DNA of 64,000 nucleotides from an uncultured Nitrososphaeraceae archaeon (GCA_963779615.1 CAVZZA010000003.1:512001-576000), one strand, 5' to 3'; shown: positions 11,250 through 49,050, numbered from the stretch's first letter. Notes: a model not told the origin generated them from the letters alone. Numbers and translations are program-made.

Positions 11250-11324
11250 GGGCTGATGGTTCAGCTTGGCACGAACGTTCGATTCGCAATCGAAAAATCG
11301 CGGGTTCAAATCCCGCTCAGTCCA
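11250..11324 (+). tRNA. tRNA-Ala: tRNA-Ala(CGC), no intron, CCA not encoded
   Basis: Cloverleaf: acceptor GGGCTGA/TCAGTCC with the G3:U70 alanine identity pair, D stem GTTC/GAAC, anticodon stem TTCGA/TCGAA with loop TTCGCAA, T arm GCGGG-TTCAAAT-CCCGC, discriminator A. Confidence 0.97.
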
Positions 11325-11513
11325 TCGACATAATTTAGAAAGGTTTCGGCAGGTTTTAGGTTTGGAAAACCAAATTGTTAACAAAAAACTGGAAGTTTAG
11401 ATCCAGTGTAATATGAAATAGTTAACAAATTTGTTAGCATAAAAAAACGGCCAATAAGGAAAAGCGAAAAATGTGTAAACATACCAAAATATTTGTTAAC
11501 ACGGCTGTTTTCG
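11311..11513 (+). repeat. att core plus family-A arm (copy A1, overlapping the tRNA 3' end)
   Basis: tcccgctcagtccatcga, then GTTAAC-type boxes at 11377, 11421, 11433, 11475 and 11495; homologous to 45172-45372. Confidence 0.9.
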
Positions 11514-11743
11514 ATATCAACTAGACAGGAGAATCATATTTTTACAATAACTTCCGATTCTTATCAACAAGCACTAGATTTTCTAAGAAATTTAAACAAA
11601 AAATTTCATATTAAAATTTATTTAAAAACATTGAAAATACTGAAATCAATATTCAATATTCAATAGATAGAATTCAATTATAGACTTTATATAAAGGTAA
11701 TTTATTTATAAATAATTGCTATCCTTCATAATCATAGAGTTAA

Positions 11744-12427
11744 TTACTTTATAATCTGAAAAGAATTAATCATTTTTTGCGCAATTGTCCAGTATTTATG
11801 ATAATGATTTTCTGGGCCGCTATATCCAATCGAATATGCCTTGTCATTATATAATGTCCACATATTCATCACTTTTATAATAAAAGGAGGCATAGATTCT
11901 CCAGGTATTCCAGAAGTTTGTACATTTGAAATTATTTCATGAGCTTCATTACCATCTAAAGTAGTTGCATTGGACTGAATTATTGTAATTCCCGACCAAC
12001 CCAAAGGCATTGTATTGTTATTAATGTTGATATTTTCTTTAGTATATTGATTTATGGTCGTATTTGGGGCCAACTTATCTATTATTATTGCCAAGTTAAC
12101 GTCTTTGGATGGTGCGAAAAACATAACAACAGTTTTGTTGTTGCCGAAAAGATCAAGACCTTGATCTAGTTTTGTCCAATCACCAGGATATTTGATTTTT
12201 ATCCCGTAGGTAGGATTTACATAGGTTAAGAAATCACTTAAGATAGAGCCATTTCCTTGATGTGGATTTGCAATCTGAGCGATTGCTTGTGGGATATCAC
12301 AAAATAATAAAATAATGGATATTGAAGAAAAAGTTATCAGTATAAGTGAAACAGGAATATATAAAATTAAAAGTTTATCATGTTTTTTTATTAGTTCAAG
12401 TATTTTATACGTATTGCACATCATCAC
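11744..12427 (-). CDS. PsbP-related secreted protein
   Basis: TM/signal segment, then YVNPTYGIKIKYPGDW, TLDGNEA, KAYSIGY and QKMINSF, typical of PsbP-like proteins. Confidence 0.8.
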   Translation of the reverse strand: MMMCNTYKILELIKKHDKLLILYIPVSLILITFSSISIILLFCDIPQAIAQIANPHQGNGSILSDFLTYVNPTYGIKIKYPGDWTKLDQGLDLFGNNKTVVMFFAPSKDVNLAIIIDKLAPNTTINQYTKENININNNTMPLGWSGITIIQSNATTLDGNEAHEIISNVQTSGIPGESMPPFIIKVMNMWTLYNDKAYSIGYSGPENHYHKYWTIAQKMINSFQIIK

Positions 12428-12611: not shown

Positions 12612-13904
12612 TTGAATCAGAAAAATCTTATTAACTGTATTAGGGCATCATATTCATTGTATTGGCAACAATACCAAATCTTATTTTTTCTCTTTTTTGC
12701 TTTTATAATAATAATCTCCTTCTACAAATTTTTTCCTCATTATGTACTTGGTGAATCACCATCATTTTCACGTCAGGTCATTAATAATTTGCAACATAAT
12801 TGGGAAATTCAACCTGAGTTAAATGGGATGAACTGTACGGGAATTCAAGATCGAATCCCATATCCTCAGATGGAAGCCGTTAGTTATTTCAGTGATGGAA
12901 AAATTTTAAATGCTACAATCTGGCTATCAGGTCCACTTGATGAACATCCGCTTCCTGCATATCGTTCGCCAATATATGCAATGGCATTAACTATCATTTC
13001 ACCTAATAAAATCGATTCAGGAGACCCTGATTATGCAGTTATGATTTCATGGAATAATACAAATCAAGAGTGGGACAAAAAGTTTGTTGAATATTCAAAG
13101 TCAAAGTCAAATCATTCAATAGTTACACCTATGTATAACATTTCTTCTGGTTTTTTTAGCAATGAGCCCATATTCTATGGGAATGGAGGAAAGGCTCATA
13201 TCAATTTTTCACTGGATTTGAGTAAAGTAACATCTCCTAGCCAGTACATGGTGTTATTTGGCATACAAGATAATTTTCTTAATATTGGAAATGGAAATAA
13301 TTTTAGTTCATGTATGGTGAGAGATTTTGGCAATAATATTGCATATATTCCTCCTCCAAAATTCAGCATATCAACAGCGCCTAGTCCTCTGATTTTAAGA
13401 CCCGGAGACCAAAAAAACTTGGAACTGAGTGTAAATTCTAGCATCCTTGGAGCCCCTATAATCTCTTTCTCTACAAACCAAAGTAAATTAATCGGATTAA
13501 ATTTTAGTCCTAGTGAAGAACATCTTACTCCAGAAGGCATAACTGTATCAAATTTAAACATACATGTTTTTGGAAATGCTACAGCAAAGCCATATACACT
13601 GCCTATATTTGCAACTATAACTTTTCCTAGTCTCAATATACAAAAGATTTTTACGCCCTTCACTCAGCCCAGCATTCGGTCTGATAATCAGAGTGAGCAA
13701 AATGCAAATATGATTCTAAGACCATCATATTTCACGGTAACAGTACAAGAACCATTAACGTGGCAAGAAAACTTTTCTAACATTTGGTCAGTTTGGGGCG
13801 GTTTTATCAATTTAGTCGGAGGAGGATTCGCTGCAGGTTTTGCAGCACTAGTGTTAAATAGGTTTAAAATAGATCGAAAAAAACAAACGAATGAATCTTC
13901 TTAA
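12612..13904 (+). CDS. secreted/membrane-anchored hypothetical protein
   Basis: N-terminal TM segment, VSYFSDGKILNATIWL, beta-rich C-terminal half, C-terminal TM anchor. Confidence 0.75.
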   Translation: MNQKNLINCIRASYSLYWQQYQILFFLFFAFIIIISFYKFFPHYVLGESPSFSRQVINNLQHNWEIQPELNGMNCTGIQDRIPYPQMEAVSYFSDGKILNATIWLSGPLDEHPLPAYRSPIYAMALTIISPNKIDSGDPDYAVMISWNNTNQEWDKKFVEYSKSKSNHSIVTPMYNISSGFFSNEPIFYGNGGKAHINFSLDLSKVTSPSQYMVLFGIQDNFLNIGNGNNFSSCMVRDFGNNIAYIPPPKFSISTAPSPLILRPGDQKNLELSVNSSILGAPIISFSTNQSKLIGLNFSPSEEHLTPEGITVSNLNIHVFGNATAKPYTLPIFATITFPSLNIQKIFTPFTQPSIRSDNQSEQNANMILRPSYFTVTVQEPLTWQENFSNIWSVWGGFINLVGGGFAAGFAALVLNRFKIDRKKQTNESS

Positions 13905-14980: not shown

Positions 14981-16313
14981 ATGAACTCCAAAGATATACA
15001 GACATTAAACAATTCGGGTTTGGAACATTATAATCAGGGGGAAAAAAATCATGAGAAAGACGAAGTTAAAAAATCAATAGAATATTTTGATAAAATACTT
15101 AAACTAGAACCAAATAATGTGGTTGCATTAAAAAATAAAGGCAATGCACTTATTTACTTAGATTGGAATGATGAAGCTATCAAATGCTTTGATAAAGACT
15201 TTGGAAATTAATCATTCATCTGCCGATTTATTGAATAATAAAGGCAATGCTTTCTATAAGGCAAATAAATTTGAAGAGGCAAATTACTATTATGATAAAG
15301 CTCTAAAGATCAATGCTAAATTTAAAGAAGTATGGAATAATAAAGGCAATGCTTATGCCAAAATGGTAAAATTTGATACAAATGCAGAAGGTCAAAATTA
15401 TAGATATGCTAAAGAATCTTACGAGAAGGCGATTGAAATAGATGATGAATATTATACTGCATATAATAATTTTGCATTATTAGATGTAATTGAATCCAAG
15501 ATATTTGAAAATAAAGGAAAATTACAAGACGCTAAAGAGCACATTGAAAAATCATATAAAATAAAAAGTGACAATCCAGAAACTTTGGATAATTATGGTG
15601 TAGTTTATTATCACCTTAAAGATTACGATAAAGCTCTAGAGTTTTTCAATAGAGCTAAAGAAAAAGACAATAAATCTGCAATAATAATGTATCACATAGG
15701 AAGAACTAACGTCAAAAAAGAAAATTATATAGAAGCCCTGAGTTGTTTTGATAAATCTTTAGATATCGAGCCTAAATTTGCCGAAGCTTATAATGGGTTA
15801 GCTTTTGTCTATAATAAACTAAAAGACTTCAACAAGGCTATCAAATATGCAAGGAAGGCATTAGAAATAAAGCCTGAACTAGAAGTTGCAGATTATAACC
15901 TCGGAAAATTAGCTTCAAGCGATTTAATTAAAAAACACGGTGATTTTTGGGAATTTTGGACATCTTCGCCTTTTAAAAAACTAATAGTGTTAGTAATTTT
16001 ATTATTAACTTTTGTTTTTGTATCTCTCTATGCAATTCATATTTTCGGTTTTTTCAATCTCAATGAAGTTACAACAACTAACACCACTACAGCAAATAAA
16101 ATAGTAAATACTACAATACTTACCAATTCGGGAAGAGATGTACCTGAAACATATTTTATTATCATAGGTGTATTGCTATTTATTTTACTACTACCTGAAA
16201 TAAGAAAGGCTAAGATGGGCCCGGTTGAATTTGAATTAGATGAATCTGACAAACATCATTTTGAAAATGAGCCTAGTCCGAGCGGTCAAGAAGATGGAGA
16301 TGAAGAAATCTGA
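14981..16313 (+). CDS. TPR-repeat protein with C-terminal TM segments (frameshift near 15200)
   Basis: ORFs 14981-15211 and 15168-16313 join into continuous TPRs (NNKGNA...YDKALKIN); two C-terminal hydrophobic helices. Confidence 0.85.
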
Positions 16314-16527
16314 TAATGCATACTATATCCAATTAATTTACTTTTTAATCCTTTGTCAATATTATATAATAAGATTAAAATCAGAAAATTTACCAAGTAT
16401 CATTCGCATACAAAGGTTAATTTGCATTCCAAGTTGATTTAAAATACATATAATATATAAGCAAAGCAATTAAAAAATAATTAATCGTAAAATGGTATTA
16501 TAACCCCTTTACCACAAGGATTTAAAA

Positions 16528-16664
16528 CCCGCTCAGTCCATCGAACAACCTTCGGCAGAAATGCCCGTGAGTTTTTATGCTTATTTTTATGAAATAGTTG
16601 ACCATCAAATCCATGAATTTTGGATGGAAAATGGCAAAAAAGTTGACTATATGGTTGACCATCA
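16528..16664 (+). repeat. att core plus family-B arm (copy B1)
   Basis: cccgctcagtccatcga, then GTTGAC boxes at 16597, 16642 and 16654; homologous to 48858-48996. Confidence 0.9.
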
Positions 16665-16781
16665 TAGCAAGTAAATCCTCTTTGAATGTTTAAATTGGAT
16701 TTGTCTTTATCAAAGAAAATGTTTTTACTCAAAGTAATTGCATCTACATTATCATTTTTTAAAATTTTCGAGGTTTTATCA

Positions 16782-17457
16782 GGTGCTGTTAACTCAGGCG
16801 TTTATCACCTTCATGTTATGCATTTTTGCAAACAGGTTGAACCAGTTTTTGATATGGCGGAAGTCGCACACCGCTTTTCTGCATGGAAAATAGTCGTCAA
16901 ATCCTTCTGTCCTGTCCTTGATGTACTGTATTGTCCTTTCAATAACACTTTTCTAAAATGTGGAATGAATATGATGCTTCAGTTTCAGGAACAGAAAGGC
17001 CTGCGGATACCATGTGCCTCCGTCAGTTGAAACAGGATACTTTCCGTGAGCCTTGACCAGGCCAAAGATAAACCTTTCCGCAACAAGCATGTTTCTCTCT
17101 TTGGAGATTGACAGTGCGAGAATCTGCCTGTCTTTTGGCTCGATGGCAACCCAAAGCCACACCAATTCCGAACCTGTCTTAACAAGTGTTTCATCCACAA
17201 CATATTCTGAAATCCTTTTCCTTGATCCCGTCTTCCTTCCAGGCCTATATTTCTGAATCCACTTCCAGATTGCAACATGGCTTCTCTTTACAATGTGCAG
17301 GTAAGACAACGCCTTGGCAACGTTTCTCAATGACAAACCAAGAAAGTAAAGATACAAACCGTGGCCAATGTGTTTTGAAGGTGTCCTATTTCTCTTATTG
17401 CGCATACAGGAAATGAGCATCCTCAAGCTATAGGATTTTCGTTAAGTTAACAGGGCC
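16782..17457 (-). mobile_element. IS6-family insertion sequence (transposase 16953-17426, frameshifted at the 3' end)
   Basis: TIRs ggtgctgttaact and agttaacagggcc; 8-bp TSD ttttatca at 16774-16781 and 17458-17465; motifs GLSLR, RSHVAIWKW, VDET, STDGGTWY. Confidence 0.92.
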
Positions 17458-19006: not shown

Positions 19007-20181
19007 GAGCATGGGTCATAATTCATTTTAATAATTTAGTCATTATTTTCGGAAGACAAATCAGCATCCTATCATGTACTTAATTGCTTTTGGAATGTCT
19101 TTCTGCATTTTGCAGTTATAATAAACAAGTATTTGATAGAGTAACACGGAAAGAAGAACAACTGCACATACCTTATCATATCCTCTCACAGGTAATGGGT
19201 CCATTCTAAAGACTGATTTGATGTGCTCAAACAGCGGTTCTATGGATTTGCCTCTCTTTGAGTATATGACCTATCCTAGAGCGGATTCATAGAAATCAAC
19301 AATTAGATTTATCCTTTCTGATGGGGTATTTCTGTATCGATGGACTGGACATACAAGTTGAAATCCCAAATCCATGCTCAAGTCATACAGGTTTTGGTCG
19401 TCGTATCCGGGGTCTGCAGTCATGTAATACGTTTTCCTTATTGTTGTAGAATGTAAACTGGATGTTAGTTCTGGAAAGACCTGGTTGTCATATACATTTG
19501 CTGTTGTAGCATCAGCTGATAGGGGTAAAGCAATGGAACCAGTACCTACATACCATGTGCAACTTGTATCCAAATACCCAACCTTTGGTATGACTGAAAC
19601 CCCATCTGGCGTCTGTGTCAATACCCGGACGTGGTACTATTCCTTTTTCCATTGAGGATTTATGCCAGACATGACCTTTTGCTTTGATAGGTGTGCTGTC
19701 TATTGCGAGGATATGTGGTCTGACCAAACCTTCTGAAACAAACAGACATCCCATTGTTGCAATCCTTTCTTTGATGTCGATAGAGATTGTCTTCAACCGC
19801 CTGTCAAAGGTGCGCCTGCTTGGCAACTGCGGTTCAGACAATCCACAGGCTTTCGTCACCTTTTTGTTGTAGGGCAGGTCGATGGAAAGATATTGATGCA
19901 GTGCCCTGTTTGAATCAAGCCGTAACCATATGCGTACTATAAAGCATCTCAAAATTGTGGTGGCAGAATATACACACGGTCTACCGCGGCGGCTGCGGCG
20001 ACAATGATTTTTTGTCTGATTGTCACCGCATGACCAGTCAATCAATCCAATGATATGCAAAATGCTAATTAGAATGGATGATGAACAATTTGTTGCTAGT
20101 CTTTTAGGTAGTACCTTGTTTCACCAAAATACGATACTCCTCTAGGCTAGCTTTATTTGTTATGAATTCTGACCCGGGCTC
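19007..20181 (-). mobile_element. DDE insertion sequence (DDE_Tnp_1-type) with frameshifted transposase
   Basis: TIRs gagcatgggtcataattcat and atgaattctgacccgggctc (17/20); 8-bp TSD aaatagtt; motifs IDSTPI, DTDARWG, GYKLH, ADPGYD. Confidence 0.88.
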
Positions 20182-20546
20182 AAATAGTTATCAAATCGCC
20201 AAGATATATTTTATTATTTGGTAAACAGTACATATAGAAGAAATAAATAAACTTGTCACTAAAAAGAAGAATTCTTCGACGAGGGGTACCATTCGGTCCA
20301 CCGTTAGGTCAAGGAAATTGGGTACAGATATTAAAACTAAAGGATTTTTATTTATATCGTATCCAGGGTCAATTGAAGACCAATTTGAATTTTTAATAAG
20401 AAGATGGACTAATAGCATTGGATAAACCATCTTGCTCGGAAGATATTTGTGAGGCGGCATTCTGTGTGGTACATTATCCCAATTAAACCATTTAATGATA
20501 GCCAACTATCCAACATTTCAATAGATATTGATAATTAAAGTAATTA

Positions 20547-21138: not shown

Positions 21139-21152
21139 GCTCAGTCCATCGA
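21139..21152 (+). repeat. att core copy with a different (third-type) downstream flank
   Basis: gctcagtccatcga, a 14-bp exact match to the tRNA 3' end plus TCGA. Confidence 0.8.
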
Positions 21153-21660
21153 ATAGTGACCGAAAGGCACTTCTCCATACGATGAAAAATAAAACCTTTT
21201 TGATCTATTCAATTTTTGGTGGATATTATAGTGAAGGTTATAGGTGTTAAAATAGACCTATTTTATTAAATCGCTAAAACTATTTTCCCAAATCACAGGA
21301 TCCCATAGATATGTTTACACAATCATTTAATGATCTTTCTAAAAATTGGGCCAGTGCTTCAAAGAAATTTGAGTCCATGTACTCTTACTGCAAGAAAGGA
21401 AGTCATGTGAAAGGGATTGATGAAAAAGACGGAGGGGTTGGTGGACGAGAATCCAGAGCATTTTACAAAACGTTCCCAGAAGGGAACAAAAGTATCTTAA
21501 AAACCAAACATGGACACAATTCGTCTCACACCAGGTTGCCTAAACATCTAAAATCATATTTAGATCGCAAAAAGACAACGACATACTTGACAACTCTTTA
21601 TGGGATGTTATTGCAAATTATTGACATATAGATTTAATACATCCCAATATATATTAAATT

Positions 21661-23320
21661 ATGAATACTTTATTTGCATTTCATCCAATGAATGCTACAT
21701 TACAAGTGCCATATTTGACTACAGTCAAGATTGGCGATAATCAAGTCAACGTCGCAGAACCCGCAGAGATTTATTTACGTCATGTTTCCGAAGACCGCAA
21801 GATTATCGCACAACTTGATTTGATCCACTCATTTAAACCACTGACTGAACCAAACTCTTACAGCTTGGCCATGTGGCAGACACCTATACGTAACCAAGGA
21901 GGTAGGGGGACATGCTATACTTTTGCTTGTATAGCCGCAATGGAGGCCATGTACAATCGTGCATTTGGACGGATACTCGACCTTTCCGAGCACTACGCAT
22001 TTCAATTAGGGAAAATTGGTGAGTTATACCCAGATTACATGACCAACGCGCTTCCACATGAAAGTAACACGAGCTACTGGGGAGGCCAAGGAAACAGTAC
22101 CTTTCTTAAATATGATTAGTCGATGCGCCGTGCCCATAGAATCAGAGTGTCCTTATCTAAGTCAGGGAGATTTGGAAAAAATTCGAACATCATTAGGGTT
22201 ACCACCAATGGATGACTTTGAGACTATTACACAAGAAACCATTGATGAATTTGAGTTTGATGAAAAAAATGTGTCAGTTGCGGCACGCAGTCAGGCTGTA
22301 TATCAAGGTACTGGTTACGCGATAATAGGCATTGAGATTGCAGATATCGAAAATGCGATTGCTTCAGATCACGAGGTTGTTTTGGACATCTCGACAAACT
22401 GGTTTACAGATTCTGGTGGCGTATGGCAGTATAGGGCTGATCCCTCTGCACAAGGTCACACAATCTTAATCGTAGGCTATAATCGAGATTCTAAGATCTT
22501 CACGTTCAAGAACAGTTGGGGATCTGGAGGCCTTGACTCTATGAGTTATGATTGCTTTTCAAAAATAGCTGCAGGTGCTTGTACACTTAATGGTGTTGTG
22601 AGTCCTCTTCGTGGTCCTCAGGTCTTGTCACGATGGCTTGGTAAATGGAATTCCGATCATGATGGCTGGCGCGGTAAACTCACGATTCGACGAGTCACGA
22701 ACTTTCGGGACAGCGGTACTAGTGCTCCAACAAAGATAGGCAATTGGTATGCTCCAGATAATACACGTCGTGACATAAATGGTTCCTTCCATGAAAACGA
22801 TTTGCAGTGTATTTATTGGATGGCTTCAAACTCTGACAAGGTGCGACCTGGTCAGATCATAGGACAACCCTTTACTGTCGAGAATTACTCCTGGGAAGCG
22901 ACTAAATGTGCCGGTACGACGGTCTGGGGCGATTCTAGTTTTGGAGTAATCCTTGATAGATCCGGGATCCCCATCAGTTCTAATAACGGGGACTCCAAAG
23001 AGTGGATAGGAAGCTGGTCAATGAATCATGATGGCTGGCGCGGTATTCTTACAGTTAGTGATTTTATAAACATACGACTCCCACCAGGTCTCACCTTAAC
23101 TATTGTACGAGCAAGTTACAAGGGAGCTGATGGTACTATATATTCAGTAGCGGGATTGCGTGACGCAAGCAATTCACATCATTTATCGATTACTATTGCA
23201 TTTCCAGACAATAACCAAACTTTTGACCTTTATCTTTTCAGCCAAGAACTCGATAAAGCAGCAGGAAACACTGTCTGGTCAGACAAAACCTTTGGTGTTC
23301 AATTATACAAGATCGTCTAG
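21661..23320 (+). CDS. papain-family (C1A) cysteine protease with duplicated C-terminal domain (frameshift near 22100)
   Basis: Catalytic motifs NQGGRGTCYTFA, GHTILIVGY and KNSWG split over two overlapping ORFs; two C-terminal WxGxWxxxHDGWRG repeats. Confidence 0.88.
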
Positions 23321-38576: not shown

Positions 38577-38836
38577 GATTTACAATAATCATGCAACAAG
38601 GCACTGCCAAAACCGATAATTAAATGTTTATTACCTTCATAACAAAGCATAACATAAACACAGGAGATTAAAATCGCGATTTACTTGGGGCTCATCCGAC
38701 CATAAGCCAAACATATATTACCATATAAGGGATATATATTTTTTAAATTAACGATAGAACTATTAAAAATTCACAAGTAATAGACAATTTTATAATATCA
38801 GCCGATTTGATTTGTAATCATAACATTCACAATACA

Positions 38837-39409
38837 TCAATTAATGTTCCTTTTAAAATAAGCACTGTTTTTAACTAATTCCATCAAAGATTTTGTTGCC
38901 ATCTCAAGTGAAATACTCTTGGATTTTGAATAATAGTTGGCCATTTTTTTCAAACCTTTTTCTGCTCGATATATTTTAACTGCGTCTTCCATAGATTTAA
39001 CCGGCCTATAAGAATTGAAACAGGAAGTAAGAATTTGGGTAAGAGTGTCTGCTTTAAAATTTTCATCGTGATGAGACAACAACTTCTCAAGTTCCTCAAA
39101 ATGGGGGTTTAACTGGCCAAAGACTCTCTTGATTTTAAGCTCGTCAACACCAGATTCAAAATTGGCATATTTGGAAAGCCACACATCAAAGATGTCATCT
39201 TTTGCTGTTGGTGGATGTGTTCGAAAATGTTTGAATTTCTTTCTATAAAACACATGTTTTGTTTTTGGCTCGAGTGCAGAAACAGGTTTGATTTTTTTAT
39301 TGTCGATAGTGGCTAAACCATCATGCATTCGCTCATTATGGCGCTCTGCATTATATTTTCTACCAAAACTTTGTTTGCATTCACTACAGGCATATGAATC
39401 TCCCTTCAC
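38837..39409 (-). CDS. C2H2 zinc-finger-containing protein
   Basis: YACSECKQSFGRKYNAERHNERMH fits C-x2-C-x3-F-x8-H-x4-H. Confidence 0.8.
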   Translation of the reverse strand: MKGDSYACSECKQSFGRKYNAERHNERMHDGLATIDNKKIKPVSALEPKTKHVFYRKKFKHFRTHPPTAKDDIFDVWLSKYANFESGVDELKIKRVFGQLNPHFEELEKLLSHHDENFKADTLTQILTSCFNSYRPVKSMEDAVKIYRAEKGLKKMANYYSKSKSISLEMATKSLMELVKNSAYFKRNIN

Positions 39410-39609
39410 AAATATAATTATCCAAATTTGATATAAATTAGTTACTCCGAGTAACTTATCGTTAACTGCAATTCAGTTATGGTATTCTTAAAAATAATGG
39501 TTAATCAAAAACTTAATATTGAAATGAAACATTTACTAAAATAGGTATTTTTTCTACCGTATATAATTTACCAGAGAAAGAGAAGAGAACCTATTTGTTC
39601 CATATACAA

Positions 39610-41993
39610 TTAAAATTCATTATCATTTTGTAATTTTTCAAGAGCTTTATTTTTGTTATTCAATGCTAATTTGTAATTCGGATCAACGGCCAATGCCTTG
39701 TCAAAGTACAGTATGGCCTTGTCATACTCGCCAAGGCTGGAAAGAGCGACACCTTTTCCATTCAATGCTAATTTGTAATTCGGATCAACGGCCAATGCCT
39801 TGTCAAAGTACAGTATGGCCTTGTCATACTCGCCAAGGCTGGAAAGAGCGACACCTTTTCCATTCAATGCTAATTTGTAATTCGGATCAACGGCCAATGC
39901 CTTGTCAAAGTACAGTATGGCCTTGTCATACTCGCCAAAGTATCCAAGAGCAACACCTTTTCCATTCAATGCTAATTTGTAATTCGGATCAACGGCCAAT
40001 GCCTTGTCATATGACTTTATGGCCTTGTCATACTCGCCAAGGTATCTAAGAGCGCTACCTTTGTAATTCAATGCTAATTTGTCATTCGGATCAACGGCCA
40101 ATGCCTTGTCAAATACAGTATGGCCTTGTCATACTCGCCAAGGCTGGAAAGAGCGACACCTTTTCCATTCAATGCTAATTTGTAATTCGGATCAACTGCC
40201 AATGCCTTGTCAAAGTACAGTATGGCCTTGTCATACTCGCCAAGTCTGGAAAGAGCGACACCTTTGTTATACAATGCTAATTTGTAATTCGGATCAACGG
40301 CCAATGCCTTGTCAAAGTACAGTATGGCCTTGTCATACTCGCCAAAGTATCCAAGAGCAAAACCTTTTCCATTCAATGCTAATTTGTAATTCGGATCAAC
40401 TGCCAATGCCTTGTCATATGACTGTATGGCCTCGGCATACTCGCCAAGTCTGTAAAGAGCATTACCTTTGTCATTCAATGCTAATTTGTAATTCGGATCA
40501 ACGGCCAATGCCTTGTCAAAGTACTGTATGGCCTCGGCATACTTTCCCAAATTGTAAAGAGCAACACCTGTGACATAAGCAACACCTTTATCATTGAATA
40601 TAATTTTGGAGGAGTCAATGTTGACGGGGGGTGGAGAGCTTGATTTTGGTGGGGGTAAGGGAATATGCGTTACAGTAACTGCAACAAAAGCATCATTTGA
40701 GGAGTTTTTGGCATCTGTAACATTAAGCTCAAATCTCAAAACGGCATCTTTGGATATGTCTTCGGGGGCGGTGAATGTGACGACAGCAGTGTTAGCACTA
40801 TCCAATGTGACCGGTGTGCCGGAAATCTGTCTCCATGAGTATGTTATTGGGTCATTGTTGGGATCTGTGCTTTTGCTTCCGTCCAAAGTTACAATATCCC
40901 CAGCGTTCACGGTTTGGCCAGTTCCCGCATTGGCTATGGGCGGTTGGTTGGACTTGGCAAACACTACAATTCGATGATTACCGGTATCAGCCACATACAC
41001 ATTTCCCGATTCATCAACAGCAATACCCAGAGGGTTATTTAACTGTCCATTTCCACCACCTTTTGATCCGAATTGTGTAAGAAAATTGCCACTGCTGTCA
41101 AACTTTTGGACACGGTGACTACCAGTATCGGCTACATAGACGTTACCTATTGAATCAATGGCGATGCTTGCCTGTCCCCTAAACTGCTTTTCACCTGTGC
41201 CATGTGAACCCCATTTTGCAATGAATTTTATTGTATTACCATTGCCATCAAACTTTTGGATGCGGTGATTAAAGGCATCAAACACATAAACATTGTTTGA
41301 TCCATCCACTGCAATGCTTGTTGGGTTGTCAAATTGTCCTTCGCGTAGTCCACTTGAACCAGTTTTTGCAATTAGCGAGCCATCAACAGAATGAATCTCA
41401 AATGTGTTGTTCAAGGTTTGTGTGAAATAAACGTGTCCGCCAGTGTCTATGGATATATCAGGCAGATAAGTTGACCCTGAAAGAACTCCTGAACCAACAC
41501 TCCATGATGTAAGGAATGTTCCATCACTTGTGAATTTTTCTATTCGAGAGTTACCAGAATCAAATACATACACATTTCTCGAAGATGGATCTATTGCTAT
41601 GCCAGAGGGACTGCTAAACTGTCCATCACCGGTACCTTGAGATCCCGATCCCCATGGAGGGGTAATGTTTTTGCCAGTAGAATCGAACACCTGAACTCTA
41701 TGATTTTGCGAATCAACAACATAAATATCATTTGACGATGGATCAATGGCAATGTCAGTTGGTTTGTTAAACTGCCCGTCACCCGTACCTTGATTTCCCC
41801 ATTTAGTAACAAAAGTATAATTCTCGGTGTTTGCCGCATATGCTATACCGGGTGCATCAGCATCATTGTCTTTAACTACACTATAATAAACAGAAATGAA
41901 CATAAAAAGAAATGATAAGGCAAAAGCAGTCATCATAAAGTATGATTTTTTCCTTTCACCATCAATATTATAAAATAAATGATTGATTTCCAT
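39610..41993 (-). CDS. secreted NHL beta-propeller + PKD/REJ-like + TPR protein (1-bp frameshift near 40113)
   Basis: NHL motifs GQFxxPxxIAxD...YVxDxxNxRIQxF, PPIANAG...LDGSKSTDP, then nine near-identical TPRs. Confidence 0.88.
39661..40560 (-). repeat. 102-bp tandem repeat x9 (TPR units)
   Basis: caatgctaatttg at 39661, 39763, 39865, 39967, 40069, 40170, 40272, 40374 and 40476; one unit is 101 bp. Confidence 0.95.
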
Positions 41994-42161
41994 TACATTA
42001 AAAGCTCCGCATTATCCCTAACACTTGTACAACTGCTTGATATTTAATTATTGGGGAGATAATACAAATGCATCATAAATGATATGCTTTGTATGCGTTC
42101 CTATTTAAAGGAGTAACATGATATACCAAGTCCATGGCATTATCAAAGTCACAATAAGCAG

Positions 42162-43574
42162 TCAGCCTCCCTTGTCATTATTGTGAGTATCATCTCCTTT
42201 GGAGGACCTTCTACGAGCAATTACCGTAATAACAGTTGTCACGATTGTTCCAACTACACCAATTATCGCCACTAACACGGTCGGATCAATAAATGGTTTT
42301 TGTGAATTTGACGTGGAAGATTCTATGGAAGGAGGAGGCTTTACTTTTACGCTAAGTGACGAGGAGCCTATTTCTTTTCCATCCTTATTGAAAGCTGTTA
42401 ATTTTATTATGTATTGTTTAGCTTCATCATATGGATGCGAAAAAGGAAAACTACAATTATCTTCTAGTCCATCACCCCATTCGCAATGAACTCTGTCTAC
42501 ACTGCTATTTTTTATACCGTCAATTTTTATTTCTAAATTTTCATTTTCTGTTATGTATGCTTTAAAATTTGTATCTTTCGATGTTGGCTGGGCAGTTGGC
42601 TGGGCAGTTGGCTGGGCAGTTGGCTGGGCAGTTGGCTGGGCAGTTGGCTGGGCAGTTGGCTGGGCAGTTGGCTGGGCAGTTGGCTGGGCAGTTGGCTGGG
42701 CAGTTGGCTGGGCAGTTGGCTGGGCAGTTGGCTGGGCAGTTGGCTGGGCAGTTGGCTGGGCAGTTGGCTGGGCAGTTGGCTGGGCAGTTGGCTGCGATTT
42801 TATTACAAGTCCATTTTCGAATGCAATGTTGCCCCAAGAGGACGGGTTTACAACAGACATTGAGAGGGGAAAACCGGATTTTTTGCCTGACGGATAATCC
42901 TGCTGTTGGATTGCAAAGCCATATGATTTAGGTTGAGTGGAAAAATGAATTCGAAAGTCCCCTTCCCACTTATTACTTTGGCTAAATATGTTGAATGTCA
43001 TGTTTTTAAAATATTGCCCCAAACCAAGGGTATCGCCAATTGAGGATGTCATCAAGGCATACCCATTTTGCTCTTCGGTTCCTGTATAATATTGAGCTTT
43101 TTGATTTCTTAGTAACATAATGAATTGATCAGAGGGTTTGATGGCATTGTTGCCAGGATTATTGTTACTACTGGAGTCAAAAAGAAAAACTATAGAATCG
43201 GCATCGTCCTGACTGCTGTCAGGTATTGTAAACGTCCCGTATACAGAATTGTATTTTGTTTCATACTTTAGGTTCAGGGTAACATTTTGGTTTATTGAAT
43301 TTGCCGCTGGAAAGGTTATATTTGCATTTGACTCTGGTGCATACTGATTTGGAATGGATCCCTGTTGTTGAATGTAATCCAGAGAACCTTGGGCAATTGA
43401 GAAAACATCAAAATTACTGTTTCCCTTGATATGGGAAGCATGGCAAAAATAACAAATAGATGAAACAAGTAATGTGAACAGCACCACAGTTAGCACAACA
43501 ACAGGAATTCGACAAAGTCGTCTTGCCACGGGATTGAAAAAAATTGAACTAGTCATCATGTAACTTGAGCACAT
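42162..43574 (-). CDS. surface protein with (QPTA)n stalk, PKD-like domain and C-terminal TM anchor
   Basis: Signal-like N-terminus, QPTA tract, WGDG...HPY PKD motif, TM followed by RRR. Confidence 0.82.
   Translation of the reverse strand: MCSSYMMTSSIFFNPVARRLCRIPVVVLTVVLFTLLVSSICYFCHASHIKGNSNFDVFSIAQGSLDYIQQQGSIPNQYAPESNANITFPAANSINQNVTLNLKYETKYNSVYGTFTIPDSSQDDADSIVFLFDSSSNNNPGNNAIKPSDQFIMLLRNQKAQYYTGTEEQNGYALMTSSIGDTLGLGQYFKNMTFNIFSQSNKWEGDFRIHFSTQPKSYGFAIQQQDYPSGKKSGFPLSMSVVNPSSWGNIAFENGLVIKSQPTAQPTAQPTAQPTAQPTAQPTAQPTAQPTAQPTAQPTAQPTAQPTAQPTAQPTAQPTAQPTAQPTAQPTSKDTNFKAYITENENLEIKIDGIKNSSVDRVHCEWGDGLEDNCSFPFSHPYDEAKQYIIKLTAFNKDGKEIGSSSLSVKVKPPPSIESSTSNSQKPFIDPTVLVAIIGVVGTIVTTVITVIARRRSSKGDDTHNNDKGG
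42583..42794 (-). repeat. 12-bp tandem repeat (about 17.7 units)
   Basis: Perfect gttggctgggca repeat. Confidence 0.97.
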
Positions 43575-43631
43575 CTCCGCAAATTCACTACATTAACAAT
43601 TCTTGGTATTGTATGTGCAATTGACAAACTC

Positions 43632-44666
43632 TTATTTTTGAGAGTTAGCCATATTGGTGCTAGATAAATCAGATATTGGGGATGTTTGGGCAAAAACTTG
43701 GATTTTATGGGTTCCCATATCTGCTACATAAACGTTCCCAGACGAATCAGCAGCAATACCATATGGGCTTGTGAACTTTCCCTGACCCACACCTTTTTCT
43801 CCCCACTTGGTAATGAATGCACCATTAGTATCAAACTTTTGAACTCGGTTATTGCCAGTGTCGGCCACATAGACATTACCTACAGAGTCAACGTTAATGC
43901 CCCCTTGCCTAATAAATTGACCATCACCATTACCTTGTTTTCCCCATTTTGCAATGAATTTTATTGACGGACTAGAATCCCCCTCAGTGGTAACCCCAAA
44001 TTTTTGAACGCGGTGATTGTTGGTGTCAAACACATAGACATTGTTTGAGCCATCAACTGCAATGCTCGTTGGGGCACTGAACTGCCCATTGCCCAATCCA
44101 TTTGAACCAAAGTCAGTAAGCAGAGAACCATCAATGGTATCTATTTCAAACTTGTTGGGGGTTGTTTGGGCATAATAGACATTCCCAGAAGCATCTATAG
44201 ATATTCCAGATTGATAAACTGGTCCCGAAGTAACACCAGAAGCAGCCCATTTTGTAAGAAATGAGCCATCGCTTGTGAATTTTTCAATTCGCAAATTGCC
44301 TGAATCAAGCACATACACATTTCCTACTGGATCTATCGCTATGCCTGTTGGGCCACTAAATTGTCCATCGCCTGAGCCTTGTGCACCCCACTTTGAAATA
44401 AATTTACCATCTAAATCAAATACTTGTATCCTGTTGTTCCCGGAATCCACAATGTAAACATTATTGGATGATGGATCCATGGCAATGGCAGATGGTCTGT
44501 TAAACTGTCCATCACCTATACCTTGCGTCCCCCATTCTTTGACAAAGGAATAATTCTCTGAAGTAGTGGCATATGCAAATATCGAATAGGAATTCAAAAT
44601 GGAAATTGAAATAATTGTAGCGATAAAGAATATAATTATTTTAGAAGTCTTTTCTGCTATACTCAT
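43632..44666 (-). CDS. secreted NHL-repeat 6-bladed beta-propeller protein
   Basis: Signal peptide plus six NHL repeats; paralog of the N-terminal half of 40074-41993. Confidence 0.9.
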   Translation of the reverse strand: MSIAEKTSKIIIFFIATIISISILNSYSIFAYATTSENYSFVKEWGTQGIGDGQFNRPSAIAMDPSSNNVYIVDSGNNRIQVFDLDGKFISKWGAQGSGDGQFSGPTGIAIDPVGNVYVLDSGNLRIEKFTSDGSFLTKWAASGVTSGPVYQSGISIDASGNVYYAQTTPNKFEIDTIDGSLLTDFGSNGLGNGQFSAPTSIAVDGSNNVYVFDTNNHRVQKFGVTTEGDSSPSIKFIAKWGKQGNGDGQFIRQGGINVDSVGNVYVADTGNNRVQKFDTNGAFITKWGEKGVGQGKFTSPYGIAADSSGNVYVADMGTHKIQVFAQTSPISDLSSTNMANSQK

Positions 44667-45171: not shown

Positions 45172-45372
45172 CCCGCTCAGTCCATCGACAATGATTCGGA
45201 AGGTTTTGGCGAATTTTATGCTCAAAAAATCAAGTTGTTAACAAAAAATCGGAAGTTTAGATCGGACATACTGTGAAATAGTTAACAAATTTGCTAACAC
45301 AAAATAAACCTACGATAAGGAAAAGCGGCAGATTTGTAAACATTTCAAAATATTTGTTAACACGGCGGTTTC
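45172..45372 (+). repeat. att core plus family-A arm (copy A3)
   Basis: cccgctcagtccatcgaca, then boxes at 45237, 45281, 45293, 45336 and 45356; shares ggaagtttagatc, gaaatagttaacaaatttg, ataaggaaaagcg and caaaatatttgttaacacggc with A1. Confidence 0.92.
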
Positions 45373-45726
45373 CAATGCCAACATTCCAGATAGAACATTT
45401 TATATATGAAAAGTGATAGAAATCCCATTCTACTGATGTAATTTTAACATCAACTAGGAATATTATTCCAATATTTATATTGAATTATATTATCATAGAC
45501 ATGGAAAATTAATCTTTGTTAGACTGTGTTTTTTTAATGTAGATTTTGTCATTTTCAATCACGATTGTTATTTTATCTCTCAATGGGTTTTGACTATCTT
45601 CATTGCGCATTTTTTTTGTCAGTTGCCGAAAATCTTGCCCAAAAAATTATTCACTATAGGGCTTAAATCCAAATTGCTCGCTGATTAATATTCTTATTTA
45701 TTGGAATTCACTACCAATAATGTTAT

Positions 45727-47088
45727 ATGGCGAATATAATGAACTTTAGACCATATTATATGAGTACAAGAAAAAAATTGAGTCCCCCAGCCAATATTGC
45801 AGATTTCAATCCAGATTCACCTCTTTCAGAGAAATGGAGTGATAAGCTTTCAACACAATTCAGATCCGAAATTGAAACTATAACAAAAGAACAAAATGTT
45901 ACATCCAGTCAAATAAATTTTTTTAATCCACTGGTACCACCAGAAGGCCAAATTGGTGTATCTCATATAACATGGGGCGGTTTTCCCAATGTCTTAACAG
46001 CAGGACATGGAAGACAAGAAGCATTACGAATAGCAGATAGATTAGAATCTTTTACCGAAGTCCAGGATTCTGACGGAAATAAACTAACATTTAATTTTAG
46101 ACCCCAAGACGAATACCTTGAATGGGTTATAAAAAGGGATGAGCCAACAGGTAAAATAAAGGAAATTGTCTTCACATGTGAAGGACCAGAATATTGGGAA
46201 AACTTGTCTGTTGATTCTGAACTGCTCTTGAGTCTGTACCGAAAGTATGCAGGGCCAGAAGTAAAATTAGGTGATTTACAACATACACAAGATTTATACC
46301 CACTCAAAAGGGATGAGAGTTTAGAGCCGGTTATTAAAAAAGGGGACTATAACAGATGGAACAAATGGAATATATCTTCCGCAATACACCTTACTCATCC
46401 AAGTAACACTTTATTTGCCGAAATTAATTTGGCTGCACGCAGCACAATTTTAAGAAAAAGAGGAGAGACACCCATTACTGATGCCCATGATCTTATTTGT
46501 TGTTCGGGCTATGGAGCTCCGAACAGGGACAGCGACCCAACAATAGGATCTGGTGCAAATTTGGCAGTAAGAGATAGAAATTGGGTAAGCTTACACGATC
46601 CTGTTGGAATATATATAGATGGCATTGATCCATCGCAATTTACAAAACCCGATGGCTCGGCAATACTTGATTTTGCTAACAAGTATTGGAACATAATAAG
46701 GTCAAGTGACGACGGTAAAATGATTCTAAGAGCAAGTGTTAAGGTACCGGATAACGAGATGTTTGACGGTAAACCGTTATTGTTGGGAGACCTTTTGGTC
46801 AATGGAGAGGCTTTACAATATGGCGGGCAAGTGACAGATGCAATCACTGTTGGATTGTATGCTGACATAATACCAAATGGCCCAAAAGCGGTTGCTTTTG
46901 ACTGTCCTAATAAATGCTGCACCAACCCAGACAACCCAGACATAGACGAAGTCGTTCCAATAAATGAAGACTGCAAAACAGAAACTCAAGCATTGTCTCT
47001 TGGTGAAGCGGGAAGAAGTAATCGCTTAACACTTATGGATAAAGGTTATTCGCGAGGAACTGGAGTAAAATACAATGACGCAGTCTGA
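45727..47088 (+). CDS. uncharacterised protein coupled to the DyP peroxidase
   Basis: Long intact ORF (RPQDEYLEW, FTCEGPEYW, YNRWNKWN, HLTHPSNTL); overlaps the DyP start. Confidence 0.8.
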   Translation: MANIMNFRPYYMSTRKKLSPPANIADFNPDSPLSEKWSDKLSTQFRSEIETITKEQNVTSSQINFFNPLVPPEGQIGVSHITWGGFPNVLTAGHGRQEALRIADRLESFTEVQDSDGNKLTFNFRPQDEYLEWVIKRDEPTGKIKEIVFTCEGPEYWENLSVDSELLLSLYRKYAGPEVKLGDLQHTQDLYPLKRDESLEPVIKKGDYNRWNKWNISSAIHLTHPSNTLFAEINLAARSTILRKRGETPITDAHDLICCSGYGAPNRDSDPTIGSGANLAVRDRNWVSLHDPVGIYIDGIDPSQFTKPDGSAILDFANKYWNIIRSSDDGKMILRASVKVPDNEMFDGKPLLLGDLLVNGEALQYGGQVTDAITVGLYADIIPNGPKAVAFDCPNKCCTNPDNPDIDEVVPINEDCKTETQALSLGEAGRSNRLTLMDKGYSRGTGVKYNDAV

Positions 47089-48697
47089 CTTTGATCTTTT
47101 AGAACCTGTACTGGATGTCACCGACATTCAAGGAAACATAATACCTGGTTTTAAGAAAGATCACCGCACTTTACTAGGATTTACCTTTAATAACTCCAAT
47201 GAGGCAAAAAAGTGGGTTAAATTATTATCATCACATATTTCCACATTGTACAAAGTTCTCAATGTCAATAGAACATATAAATCTGAAAAAAAACGCTTGG
47301 GCGCTGAGCCAACCGACCTAACGGCCACATGGACAAATATTGCCTTTTCATATCCAGGGATAAGAAAATTAGTAAACGACATGGAAGAAATAGAACTGGA
47401 TTATGCCTTTGATAACACGTTTAAAAACGGCTTACCGAAATCATCCATTGGATTAGGGGATTCAACCGATCCAAACGCGGAAGGCAACATTTCCAATTGG
47501 GTGATAGGGATACCCGATAGAGAAGGAGAATCAGATGGCATACCGGACGTTATTTTGATTATAGATAGTGATACTCCTGAAGCTATGGAATCAAAGGTAC
47601 ATTTTATTGAAGGTTTGTCTCCCAGCTATGAAACAAAATTGCATTACAAAGAGGTAGGGCATGATTTGTCATACTACGGTAACGAGCATCTAAGAGGACA
47701 CGAACATTTTGGTTTTAAGGATGGTATTTCGCAGCCGGCTGTAAGAGGCAGATCTTCATCTAGCCCAACTGATTTTTTGACTGCAAGGTCTGCTGATGCA
47801 ACAGATGATCCTAATTCTCCGGAATTCAGCTCTGATGGCAATCCACTTGTAGCAGCCGGTGAATTCGTTATAGGCTATCCAGTTCAAAATTTAAACTATC
47901 CAAGAAGGGTTAATCCAGTAAATCAACCTCACAAACTTTTAAGAAATGGCTCTTATTTGGTTTACCGAAGACTTAAGCAAGATGTGGTGGGTTTTGAGAT
48001 TTTTGCCAATAGAGAAAGCCAAAGAATATCCACTTCATCTGGATTTCCCACCATTAGCCCTCTAAAGTTTAAAAGTCTCATTGTGGGTAGATGGCCTAGT
48101 GGCGCACCGGTCAGTAAATCCCCTGACCAAGACAGTCTTGAATTGGCCACAAGTAATCATAACAACACATTTGGTTATGCAGACGATCCTAATGGTTATA
48201 AAACACCCGTATTTAGCCACATAAGGAAGATAAATCCGAGAGATTTATCAACAGATGATGGTCCACCATCACAAACATTAAAAAGACGGATTCTTAGACG
48301 AGGGATACCATTTGGTCCCCCTTTAGAGATTGGAAAACCAGATACAGTTAATGGGGATAGAGGATTGTTATTTTTATCGTATCAGACATCCATTAGAGAA
48401 CAATTTGAATTTATAGTGAGAAGATGGGCAAATAGCACAGTTAATCCGTCTAATGGTTCCAGCCCAGGGGTTCACCAGGGTGGATTAGATCTTGTCATTG
48501 GCCAAAAATCAGAGACAGGAACATCAGGTAATCGCGTTCGTAGTAACTATTTGCGTGGCAAAGTGAACGATGAAACTATAGAGGTAAAAACAACTACAGA
48601 AGGTTTAAGCATGCTAGATTGGGTCATACCGACTGGAGGTGGATATTTCTTTTCTCCCTCAATCAGATCACTAACAGACATTCTAGGTGCGACATAA
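47075..48697 (+). CDS. Dyp-type (dye-decolorizing) heme peroxidase
   Basis: DIQGNI, HEHFGFKDGISQP (GxxDG), NGSYLVYRRL, SHIRKINPR (proximal His), ILRRGIPFG, GGGYFFSPS. Confidence 0.93.
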   Translation: MTQSDFDLLEPVLDVTDIQGNIIPGFKKDHRTLLGFTFNNSNEAKKWVKLLSSHISTLYKVLNVNRTYKSEKKRLGAEPTDLTATWTNIAFSYPGIRKLVNDMEEIELDYAFDNTFKNGLPKSSIGLGDSTDPNAEGNISNWVIGIPDREGESDGIPDVILIIDSDTPEAMESKVHFIEGLSPSYETKLHYKEVGHDLSYYGNEHLRGHEHFGFKDGISQPAVRGRSSSSPTDFLTARSADATDDPNSPEFSSDGNPLVAAGEFVIGYPVQNLNYPRRVNPVNQPHKLLRNGSYLVYRRLKQDVVGFEIFANRESQRISTSSGFPTISPLKFKSLIVGRWPSGAPVSKSPDQDSLELATSNHNNTFGYADDPNGYKTPVFSHIRKINPRDLSTDDGPPSQTLKRRILRRGIPFGPPLEIGKPDTVNGDRGLLFLSYQTSIREQFEFIVRRWANSTVNPSNGSSPGVHQGGLDLVIGQKSETGTSGNRVRSNYLRGKVNDETIEVKTTTEGLSMLDWVIPTGGGYFFSPSIRSLTDILGAT

Positions 48698-48857
48698 TCG
48701 ATGTGTTATAACAGTTGTTTTGGATTTGCTTTATCATAACAAACGCTCAAACTACTTGCCATTTATAGGAATTTTAATCTTTTTTCAATTTACACAAAAA
48801 TAACTCACAGCAATGAAAACCGAATCACAATAGAACTTCTATGCCACATGGAATTCA

Positions 48858-49050
48858 ATCCCGCTCAGTCCATCGAACAGCATTCAGCAGATGTGCCCGC
48901 GTGTTTTTGTGCTCATTTTTGTAAAATAGGTGACCATCAAAGCAGATAATTTTGGATTGAAAATAGCAAAAAAGTTGACTATATGGTTGACCATCAAAAC
49001 ATGAAATTATAATTGTTGGTCAACTGTTAGTTGTTAATGGCCAACCATCA
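48858..49050 (+). repeat. att core plus family-B arm (copy B2)
   Basis: atcccgctcagtccatcgaaca, then boxes at 48929, 48974 and 48986, plus inverted/variant boxes at about 49016 and 49037; shares gcaaaaaagttgactatatggttgaccatca with B1. Confidence 0.92.

Follow-up and report, generated by a model that had tools for sequence, protein, structure and literature searches.

Tandem copies of a tRNA-Ala(CGC) 3' end in an ammonia-oxidising archaeon: probable serial integration with subsequent loss of integrase modules

Background

A stretch of 64,000 nucleotides from an uncultured Nitrososphaeraceae archaeon (GCA_963779615.1, CAVZZA010000003.1:512001-576000; hereafter the window) carries an intact tRNA-Ala(CGC) gene followed by six direct copies of its 3' end, which divide the downstream DNA into segments of accessory genes. 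The locus raises the question of how such an array could be assembled when none of its segments in the window shows an integrase. An initial annotation, made from the window alone, took it for an integron-like platform, with cassettes that had been inserted as integrase-less units by an enzyme acting in trans. The window corresponds to C3:512001-576000 of genome G000 (3,169,391 bp; five contigs; 92.5% complete), whose host is an ammonia-oxidising archaeon, since it encodes an archaeal AmoA. The comparison set comprised 34 genomes of the genus (33 besides G000), plus family relatives, all designated here by G numbers; the unpublished G035 and G077 (loci L023 and L020) were left out of all counts and claims. 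As argued below, the array probably arose by serial integration of complete elements that afterwards lost their integrase modules.

The core repeats and the extent of the island

The exact 14-mer GCTCAGTCCATCGA occurs six times in the window, every time on the + strand, with ends at 11328, 16544, 21152, 38515, 45188 and 48876. The exact search and the resulting spacings of 5216, 4608, 17363, 6673 and 3688 bp agree with the six repeats and the segment sizes of the initial annotation. When up to two mismatches are allowed, the window holds seven matches against a shuffle mean of 0.17 and a shuffle maximum of 2 (0 of 100 shuffles reach seven); the seventh, at 19337-19350 on the - strand with two mismatches, lies within an insertion sequence (IS) fragment and is taken as a chance match. 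Across the 3.17-Mb genome the exact 14-mer is confined to the six sites of the island, and a single copy with one mismatch is found at C5:840966-840979. The repeats are real and non-random. All six cores have the 14 nt in common; five of them share 17 nt (CCCGCTCAGTCCATCGA), and core 3 alone is limited to the 14. The anchoring gene and the cores (the latter from the repeat search) are as follows.

11250-11324, + strand: tRNA-Ala(CGC), intact; anchor of the island, attachment-site (att) side attL (ARAGORN; Rfam RF00005, 62.6 bits)
11312-11328, + strand: core 1, 17 nt, consisting of the last 13 nt of the tRNA and TCGA
16528-16544, + strand: core 2, 17 nt
21139-21152, + strand: core 3, only 14 nt shared
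38499-38515, + strand: core 4, 17 nt
45172-45188, + strand: core 5, 17 nt
48860-48876, + strand: core 6, 17 nt

Two decayed copies of the array lie outside the window, one at C3:612667 with 2 of 17 core positions changed and the other at C3:618541 with a largely decayed core; the sequences after them are of the kinds called arm B and arm A below, respectively. The locus thereby combines two features by which tRNA islands are recognised, namely an intact tRNA at one end and direct repeats on the same strand only downstream of it (six exact and two decayed, all on the + strand of C3). The proposal of serial site-specific integration at the tRNA is supported, the repeats being att-type scars, and because core decay rises with distance from the tRNA the newest element probably adjoins the gene, as had been suggested. 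The last segment, first described as open-ended, has an end outside the window: segment 6 is about 51.8 kb long and stops at C3:612667, where one of the two decayed cores lies. At C3:617621-618130 there is a ferritin-like gene that has counterparts about 4-11 kb downstream of tRNA-Ala(CGC) in G032, G064 and G054, and its place in these three relatives therefore suggests a distal island end near C3:618.5 kb. This suggests an island of about 95 kb, from C3:523,3xx to about C3:618,5xx, with the window as its tRNA-proximal half. On the other side of the anchor, about 240 nt upstream of the tRNA, lies an intact-looking DDE_Tnp_1 transposase gene (10113-11009, - strand), a related copy of which stands beside the ferritin-like gene in G064.

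Three kinds of arm behind the cores

The initial annotation had a single conserved arm after every core. There are instead three kinds, 130-400 bp long and with repeated GTTAACA or GTTGAC motifs: arm A after cores 1, 4 and 5, arm B after cores 2 and 6, and arm C after core 3. The repeats of arm A are of the TTGTTAACA type and those of arm B are GTTGACCAT and GTTGACTAT; both arms open with a short hairpin and a T-run, followed by direct and inverted repeats. Distances within arms are given below as + values in nucleotides.

11329-11546, + strand: arm A after core 1, long form with TTGTTAACA-type repeats and no integrase after it (alignments; 88.9% over 208 nt to G110:C31:69500)
16545-16678, + strand: arm B after core 2, cut at about +150, the complete arm in relatives having about 283 nt before the integrase start (alignment)
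21153-21205, + strand: arm C after core 3; its sole relative in the genome is at C3:901334 (- strand)
38516-38903, + strand: arm A after core 4, split by a 232-bp insert at 38577-38808 that resembles a miniature inverted-repeat transposable element (MITE)
45189-45577, + strand: arm A after core 5, extended long form of about 400 nt (alignment)
48877-49065, + strand: arm B after core 6, cut at about +205 (alignment)
16499-16527, + strand: P-side motif (GAACCC..ACCACAAGGA..) before core 2
48830-48859, + strand: P-side motif before core 6

The conservation had been described as one-sided. This does not hold throughout, for cores 2 and 6 share the P-side motif before the core: GAACCCnTTTACCACAAGGAATTTAAT precedes both, and an alignment of their junctions over 176 nt, with both sides included, gives 82% identity. 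In relatives the P-side motif precedes most non-tRNA cores and is also seen at the far end of integrase-bearing elements. At 58571-58601 and C3:578250-578279 the motif has the form GAACCC..CCACAAGGAA.TTAAT and is followed by other tRNA-like 3' ends, for which the genome holds no matching tRNA at up to two mismatches.

Rfam finds no RNA gene in the window other than the tRNA, and the idea that the arm is itself an RNA gene was rejected: folding 12 arm-A copies to a consensus gives -3.9 kcal/mol with a covariation term of +0.79, which lends it no support. Arm-type copies off the array are found at C3:901334 (- strand, arm C) and C5:840982 (- strand, arm A). The latter lies in a region, C5:838330-841190, that adjoins no detected tRNA and is paralogous to junction 4 (38287-39488, on both sides of the core) and to 59602-60169; the junction-4 paralogue proper spans about 1.05 kb (C5:840143-841190) and is free of the MITE-like insert. 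One part of that insert, about 40 nt long, is found again at over 20 sites in the genome.

Complete elements at the same tRNA in relatives

In relatives the arm stands at the same tRNA directly before an integrase of about 390 residues (within about 280 nt), which is followed by a smaller gene of the PadR-like/DUF4364 kind. In G064 and G110, for example, arm B is followed by an open reading frame (ORF) of 401-403 aa from +283 and then by one of 139-170 aa, and at the same position G111 encodes a homologue of the larger ORF with 92% identity. Integrases beside the same arm, which the initial annotation proposed to seek elsewhere, are thus on record at tRNA-Ala(CGC) in relatives, and because the arms adjoin integrases there we identify them as P' att arms, those on the integrase side, in a family of integrative elements.

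All 8 aligned members of the arm-linked integrase match PF16795 (Archaeal phage integrase) at E <= 0.01 (best 1.6e-7), the first member reaching 26.3 bits against a cut-off of 27; a sequence search of PDB gave no match. Six residues, R255, K300, R347, H350, R369 and Y378, are invariant in these 8 integrases, and the invariant Arg, Lys, Arg, His and Tyr are predicted to be the catalytic residues of a tyrosine recombinase. By eye, the N-terminal segment looks like a ribbon-helix-helix. A PF16795-like integrase stands beside tRNA-Ala(CGC) or the arm in 13 published genomes (G064, G096, G006, G001, G059, G055, G076, G026, G091, G012, G078, G110 and G111). Four other genomes have a PF00589-type integrase there instead, G032 representing a clean 11-kb element with attR (a second core). 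The repeat word of the arm is specific to the type of element, being GTTGACCAT, GGAACCA, TTCTTCCAT, TGCTAGCA or GTTAACA. One word per element type suggests that the repeats are binding sites of a protein encoded by the element, and we accordingly regard them as predicted protein-binding sites.

Search for integrases in the island and the genome

The statement that the window lacks a recombinase ORF held throughout, in a Pfam scan of 40 ORFs, in six-frame searches with PF00589, PF16795 and PF00239, and in tblastn. The same Pfam scan turned up no helicase, primase or polymerase domain and no conjugation module. Across the genome the six-frame search gave three hits for PF00589, four for PF16795 and one for PF00239, all outside the window. 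In the larger region C3:512001-632000, the sole tblastn match to an integrase is a marginal one of 24 aa (E 0.008); it falls at C3:587471-587542, which is beyond the window and still within the island. Apart from it no integrase was found in any unit of that region, while units at the same tRNA in relatives have one. A hidden recombinase common to the segments was likewise sought and rejected, an all-against-all blastp of the 117 ORFs of C3:512001-632000 having shown only TPR/NHL paralogues and IS fragments to be shared.

None of the integrases found elsewhere in the genome qualifies as cognate. The PF00589 hits sit at tRNA-Val(TAC), tRNA-Arg(GCG) and tRNA-Ala(TGC); the candidate at C4:252101-253388, 59-65% identical to the PF00589 integrase of the tRNA-Ala(CGC) type, is frameshifted and lies after a different, intron-bearing tRNA. 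The PF16795 hits, at tRNA-Gly(CCC), C5:421538, C3:266547 and C5:427424, are all without GTTAACA arms, and those at C3:266547 and C5:427424 each contain an internal TGA. The tRNA-Gly(CCC) integrase (C3:1137590-1138648) is intact, scores 28.2 bits with PF16795 and is 41% identical to the arm-B integrases; it has its own arm with TTGTTGAC repeats and a core that differs from that of tRNA-Ala(CGC). No PadR-like homologue was found in the genome. With the best homologue at only 41% and at another core, and with no PadR-like gene, this 92.5%-complete assembly therefore holds no cognate helper.

Loss of the integrase modules

The explanation that we hold to be probable is serial integration at tRNA-Ala(CGC) followed by loss of the integrase modules. 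Integrative elements would have inserted successively into the 3' end of the gene, each insertion regenerating the tRNA and pushing older elements outwards. The integrase-PadR module would then have been deleted from every segment, and the remnants, as att-flanked, integrase-less units that keep accessory genes, would have decayed and rearranged in the manner of bacterial cis-mobilisable elements (CIMEs). The order of events and the loss by deletion are what we infer from the junctions and from the relatives. Each junction keeps a tRNA-derived core of 14-17 nt together with the P' arm of the next element, and the units show the arrangement by which CIMEs are recognised, attL and attR flanks without integration and transfer genes.

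Where arm B has no integrase behind it, the arm of about 283 nt is cut at varying points: at about +150 after core 2, at +205 after core 6, at +147 at C3:612667, and at +240 and +125 in G110. For arm A there are remnants of the enzyme itself in relatives. G110 has a 62-aa C-terminal integrase stub about 1.8 kb past an arm-A core, with an NHL gene between the two, which shares 69% identity with the GTTAACA-type integrase of G055; a 79-aa C-terminal stub at 75% identity is present in G096. The initial annotation had named integrase remnants inside each segment as the mark of ordinary decayed tandem elements; the window has none, and an arm-A segment of a relative does contain one. In G110, moreover, the tRNA-adjacent element retains its integrase and the distal arm-bearing segments are without. 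Other signs of decay are segment 2, which is mostly IS debris with a DyP fragment, the MITE-like insert in the arm of core 4, and the decayed distal cores. The earlier view that the units had been inserted as integrase-less cassettes in trans is accordingly no longer the preferred one: the same arms precede an integrase in relatives, the arm-B cuts vary, stubs of the arm-A type exist, and no close homologue (best 41%) is at hand to act as the helper.

Changes of arrays among relatives

The array segments that the close relatives G104 and G110 have in common agree at 95-97% identity. In G104 a segment U1 is directly followed by a segment X; in G110 the pair stands apart, with two extra segments (about 2.4 and 3.8 kb) in between, on two contigs (C93 and C79) that overlap by 55 nt at 100% identity. 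The extra G110 DNA finds matches in G104 of at most 91%, with 81-84% for the longer ones, whereas the shared segments match at 96-97%. Counted from the first base of the core, the switch between the two arrangements falls within about +4 to +44. As far as +36 the diagnostic positions agree with the left partner, which places the break in the arm, past the tRNA-derived core. This shows that arrays change by whole units, with which the action of an integrase and arm-to-arm homologous recombination fit alike.

Two junctions of the window can also be followed elsewhere. Junction 5 is common to G110, G104, G113 and G089, with 80.6% identity over 726 nt (-306 to +402) to G110:C93. This lies within the range of the syntenic flank, near its maximum (in 34 kb, 19 alignments covering 25.4 kb show identities that average 75.8% when weighted and reach at most 81.3%), so that the junction looks old and vertically inherited. 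A 10-kb contig of an independent soil metagenome carries 45609-48834 at about 94% identity and continues past the place of junction 6 as far as arm B; the part with the P-side motif and the core, 69 nt, is equal in length there but diverged. Contigs of four soil metagenomes were compared with the window; this one alone was informative, and no joint skipping a segment was found. The DyP stretch shared with the soil contig begins at 45609, about 420 nt past core 5, and the segment-5 arm of about 400 nt has its relative in G110 instead. These different relatives of arm and DyP cargo imply that the two were joined by an event outside att, near 45571-45609.

Alternative explanations

Several observations weigh against the loss of integrases as the whole account. 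Searches of the window by tblastn with ten integrase queries recovered nothing, not even an integrase pseudogene. Arm A occurs at 25 loci in 9 of the 34 genus genomes, and in 0 of the 25 is there an integrase homologue within 1.5 kb; independent loss would therefore need to be complete in every copy. No full-length integrase more than 39% identical to the GTTAACA type was found in the same 34 genomes. Seven arm-A copies nevertheless keep the arm to at least about +204 (two in G000, three in G110, one each in G112 and G104), and five of them (both from G000, G110:C31:69500, G110:C79:4446 and G112:C297), aligned beyond this point, reach about +235, close to where an integrase would begin. G104:C169 and G110:C79, both among the seven, have cargo in common (97% identity), which leaves four or five different cargoes behind long arms, and random deletion end-points do not predict this. 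Compared with three G110 copies, the arm A of core 1 reaches 82-89% identity, above the syntenic flank, and the 25 copies are conserved motif by motif, with values of 0.84-1.0 for core and repeats and of about 0.5 for the spacers. Both continued use of the arms and a constraint that predates the loss of the integrase fit this likeness and constraint. Lastly, cores 3, 4 and 5 are without the P-side motif despite an intact core, for which simple later deletion does not account.

It is mainly this arm-A pattern that keeps two other explanations in consideration. In one, the integrase of another element excises units and re-inserts them at any core, which would make the tRNA locus a platform of gene capture and reshuffling; we regard this as unlikely, though it would explain the 25 integrase-free arms, the seven long arms before four or five different cargoes, the likeness of arms between species beyond that of the flanks, and the motif-wise conservation of core and repeats. 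It would also sit well with the six intact cores of the window, with the small segments of 1.7-3.8 kb in relatives, with the two extra segments of G110 between units that are neighbours in G104, and with the presence in this very genome of an intact family member, with TTGTTGAC arm repeats, at tRNA-Gly(CCC). Yet that enzyme is at best 41% identical and targets a different core, so that a cognate integrase is wanting, and none of the arm-A type was found in the 34 genus genomes. The G104/G110 switch lies in the arm, about 37-55 nt from the first base of the core, and is explained equally well by homologous recombination between arms, the left edge of the DyP module relative to the soil contig is 45609 and not core 5, and the apparent age of junction 5 and the variable cut points of arm B speak against this explanation as well. 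In the other explanation, arms serve as portable homology: after the integrases were lost, arrays would have changed solely by homologous recombination, either between arms or at an arm with foreign DNA that had been taken up, the arms being partly kept because their first 45 nt or so end the tRNA transcript and their repeats bind a host protein. The difference between G104 and G110, exactly one repeat-to-repeat unit with its switch inside the arm, the joining of the segment-5 arm to a DyP module of other ancestry, and the 1.05-kb junction-4 paralogue on another contig with both sides of the core all speak for such exchange. It is quite unlikely as a full account, for arm copies that are only 75-89% alike are poor substrates of homologous recombination, three interleaved kinds of arm and exact 17-nt cores would still require prior site-specific integration, and no host binding protein has been identified.

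That the array is an artefact, a misassembly or a local segmental duplication of the tRNA end, is very improbable. Repeats can mislead assemblers, and no sequencing run contains half of the words of the stretch (best share 0.11, in soil metagenomes). However, each junction is unique sequence, given three kinds of arm with 63-89% likeness and unrelated cargo; the independent soil contig runs from the DyP module to arm B across the position of junction 6; and at least 8 further genomes of the genus have homologous arrays. We therefore retain serial integration with subsequent loss of the integrase modules as the favoured explanation.

Accessory genes of the segments

The cargo of the segments, as far as it was assigned by Pfam, is listed here.

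Segment 1: PsbP-like gene (11744-12427, - strand); unassigned 430-aa ORF (12612-13904, + strand); TPR protein (15168-16313, + strand)
Segment 2, IS debris on the - strand: DDE_Tnp_IS240 fragment (16953-17426); DDE_Tnp_1 fragment (19512-20060)
Segment 2: C-terminal pseudogene fragment of DyP (20256-20416, + strand; tblastn E 8.6e-11), matching residues 401-454 of the segment-5 DyP
Segment 3 (17.4 kb; 21311-38225): papain-like ORFs (21661-23320); MgtE_N repeat protein (28096-29271); DDE_Tnp_4 fragment (31251-31697); GMC oxidoreductase (34884-37688)
Segment 4 (38837-44666, - strand): 190-aa ORF; TPR, NHL-PKD-TPR, PT-repeat and NHL proteins
Segment 5 (45727-48697, + strand): unassigned 453-aa ORF and DyP-type peroxidase (47075-48697), overlapping by 14 nt
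Segment 6, start (49254-64000): no recombinase found

The 430-aa ORF of segment 1 and the 453-aa ORF of segment 5 are not alike. Further Pfam families among the 40 ORFs scanned include hemerythrin, YEATS and several transposase fragments; the YEATS domain is of the prokaryotic kind (PF20305, E 4e-15) and forms the C-terminus of a 441-aa protein at 61759-63084 (- strand). A second DyP-like fragment in the genome lies at C4:258081-258611, about 5 kb from the frameshifted integrase. Long in-frame tandem repeats (units of 36, 45, 24/12 and 12 nt) occupy 28075-29870 and 42535-42842 within the ORFs 28096-29997 and 42162-43574, and the G+C content rises to 0.64 at 29-30 kb against 0.28-0.47 over the rest of the window.

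Comparison among relatives upheld the expectation that the content would be strain-specific, the DyP protein being found in 0 of the 33 other genus genomes. At the nucleotide level only the arms and a few genes at the island end are common with relatives. The upstream flank is syntenic with G110, and downstream only arms are shared, so that variable content beside a syntenic flank, another trait of tRNA islands, is present as well.

Other arrays in the genome

The tRNA-Ala(CGC) array is one case of a genome-wide habit. The last 13 nt of tRNA-Met(CAT) recur in eight same-strand copies over about 148 kb (C3:117219-264892), with three more copies at C3:820-827 kb and one on contig C2; a tblastn search of C3:117-265 kb found no integrase homologue in that array. 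At tRNA-Gly(CCC) there are three copies (C3:1116674-1138905 and C1:184857), with the intact PF16795-like integrase after the tRNA, and the copy at 1116674 has a full TTGTTGAC-repeat arm and no integrase behind it. Repeats also accompany tRNA-Glu and tRNA-Ala(TGC). Contig C2 (29.8 kb), possibly a mobile element or else part of an island that was not placed, contains three tRNA-Val(GAC) 3' ends, one tRNA-Met(CAT) 3' end, the P-side motif and integrase fragments. ARAGORN detected only 24 tRNAs and missed intron-bearing ones, so that further arrays may exist.

Comparison with known systems

An integron has at its head the integrase gene intI, the site attI and the promoter Pc; its attC sites fold as imperfect hairpins, and its cassettes are mostly single promoterless ORFs in one orientation. 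The present locus resembles it in having tandem units bounded by recombination sites and in gathering accessory genes at one place. However, its head is a tRNA gene without a platform integrase or attI, the sites do not fold like attC (see the arm-A consensus above), and the units of 3.7-17.4 kb hold several genes on both strands without a common promoter or orientation. The locus fails every integron-defining feature tested, and the analogy drawn by the initial annotation is given up on these grounds.

The island-building pattern is known from bacteria, and the array is an archaeal member of it: the locus works like bacterial CIME accretion, the ssrA islands of Dehalococcoides and the tycheposon islands. 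The primary papers on streptococcal accretion and CIMEs are reportedly those of Pavlovic (2004) and Bellanger (2011). PMC5704250 outlines three steps, in which an element integrates, decays to a CIME and is joined by others through accretion, and in its treatment of the accretion of streptococcal integrative and conjugative or mobilisable elements and of CIMEs, this source likewise describes integration at tRNA 3' ends, decay to att-flanked units and tandem arrays at retained att sites. Unlike the streptococcal CIMEs, the present units have an archaeal host, an integrase family that is PF16795-like, repeat-bearing arms and no conjugation module seen in the scanned ORFs; the whole array, of at least 7 units, is without integrase. 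In Dehalococcoides, more than a dozen ssrA repeats are described within 100 kb, some of the islands lacking an integration module and being suggested to be CIMEs (PMC3146451). As portrayed there, the direct repeats are of a small-RNA 3' end over about 100 kb downstream and bound strain-specific tandem islands, with a conserved motif beside the repeat; these islands differ in being bacterial, in their serine recombinase DsiB and tmRNA target, and in having an integration module in 16 islands versus none here. The tRNA islands of Prochlorococcus, by the account in 10.1101/2020.12.28.424599, are scattered with partial tRNAs and fragmented integrases. Their tycheposons are likewise anchored at tRNAs, with new elements pushing older ones inward and with niche-related cargo, but are defined in that account by an integrase and a replication module, neither of which was found in the window, and the integrase family and the domain of life differ.

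Closer to the host, a thaumarchaeal survey used an integrase search as one of three detection routes and found the integrase to be the most conserved protein of cryptic elements (PMC6563490). According to the same source these elements, from the same phylum, frequently target tRNA genes, have att sites with a median of 17 bp and can form arrays at re-used sites. A survey conducted in the way described there may therefore miss integrase-less arrays and underestimate the mobile share of these genomes. Integrated archaeal elements without an integrase are presumed in PMC8371274 to have lost it after integration, and tandem integration is noted to occur. In the literature consulted we found no account of an array at tRNA-Ala(CGC) or of integrase-less arrays in Nitrososphaerales; the supplementary element lists of PMC6563490 may bear on this point.

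Implications

The relatives define a family of elements in which a repeat-bearing arm stands between the tRNA core and the genes for a PF16795-like integrase and a PadR-like protein, which provides concrete material for the study of archaeal site-specific recombination. It is conceivable, if rather doubtful, that arm A and perhaps arm B mark integrase-less mobile units in Nitrososphaerales, each made up of a core, a long arm and interchangeable cargo and spread by integrases in trans. If so, ammonia-oxidising archaea would have an integron-like or CIME-like system of gene capture that is invisible to integrase-based surveys, and arms still in use would represent the first archaeal counterpart of bacterial cassettes mobilised in cis or in trans. 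A large share of the strain-specific genes of this archaeon, among them those for secreted-type NHL/TPR proteins, the GMC oxidoreductase and DyP, sits in tRNA-anchored arrays of att scars, and at least three or four other tRNAs of the genome are alike in this respect.

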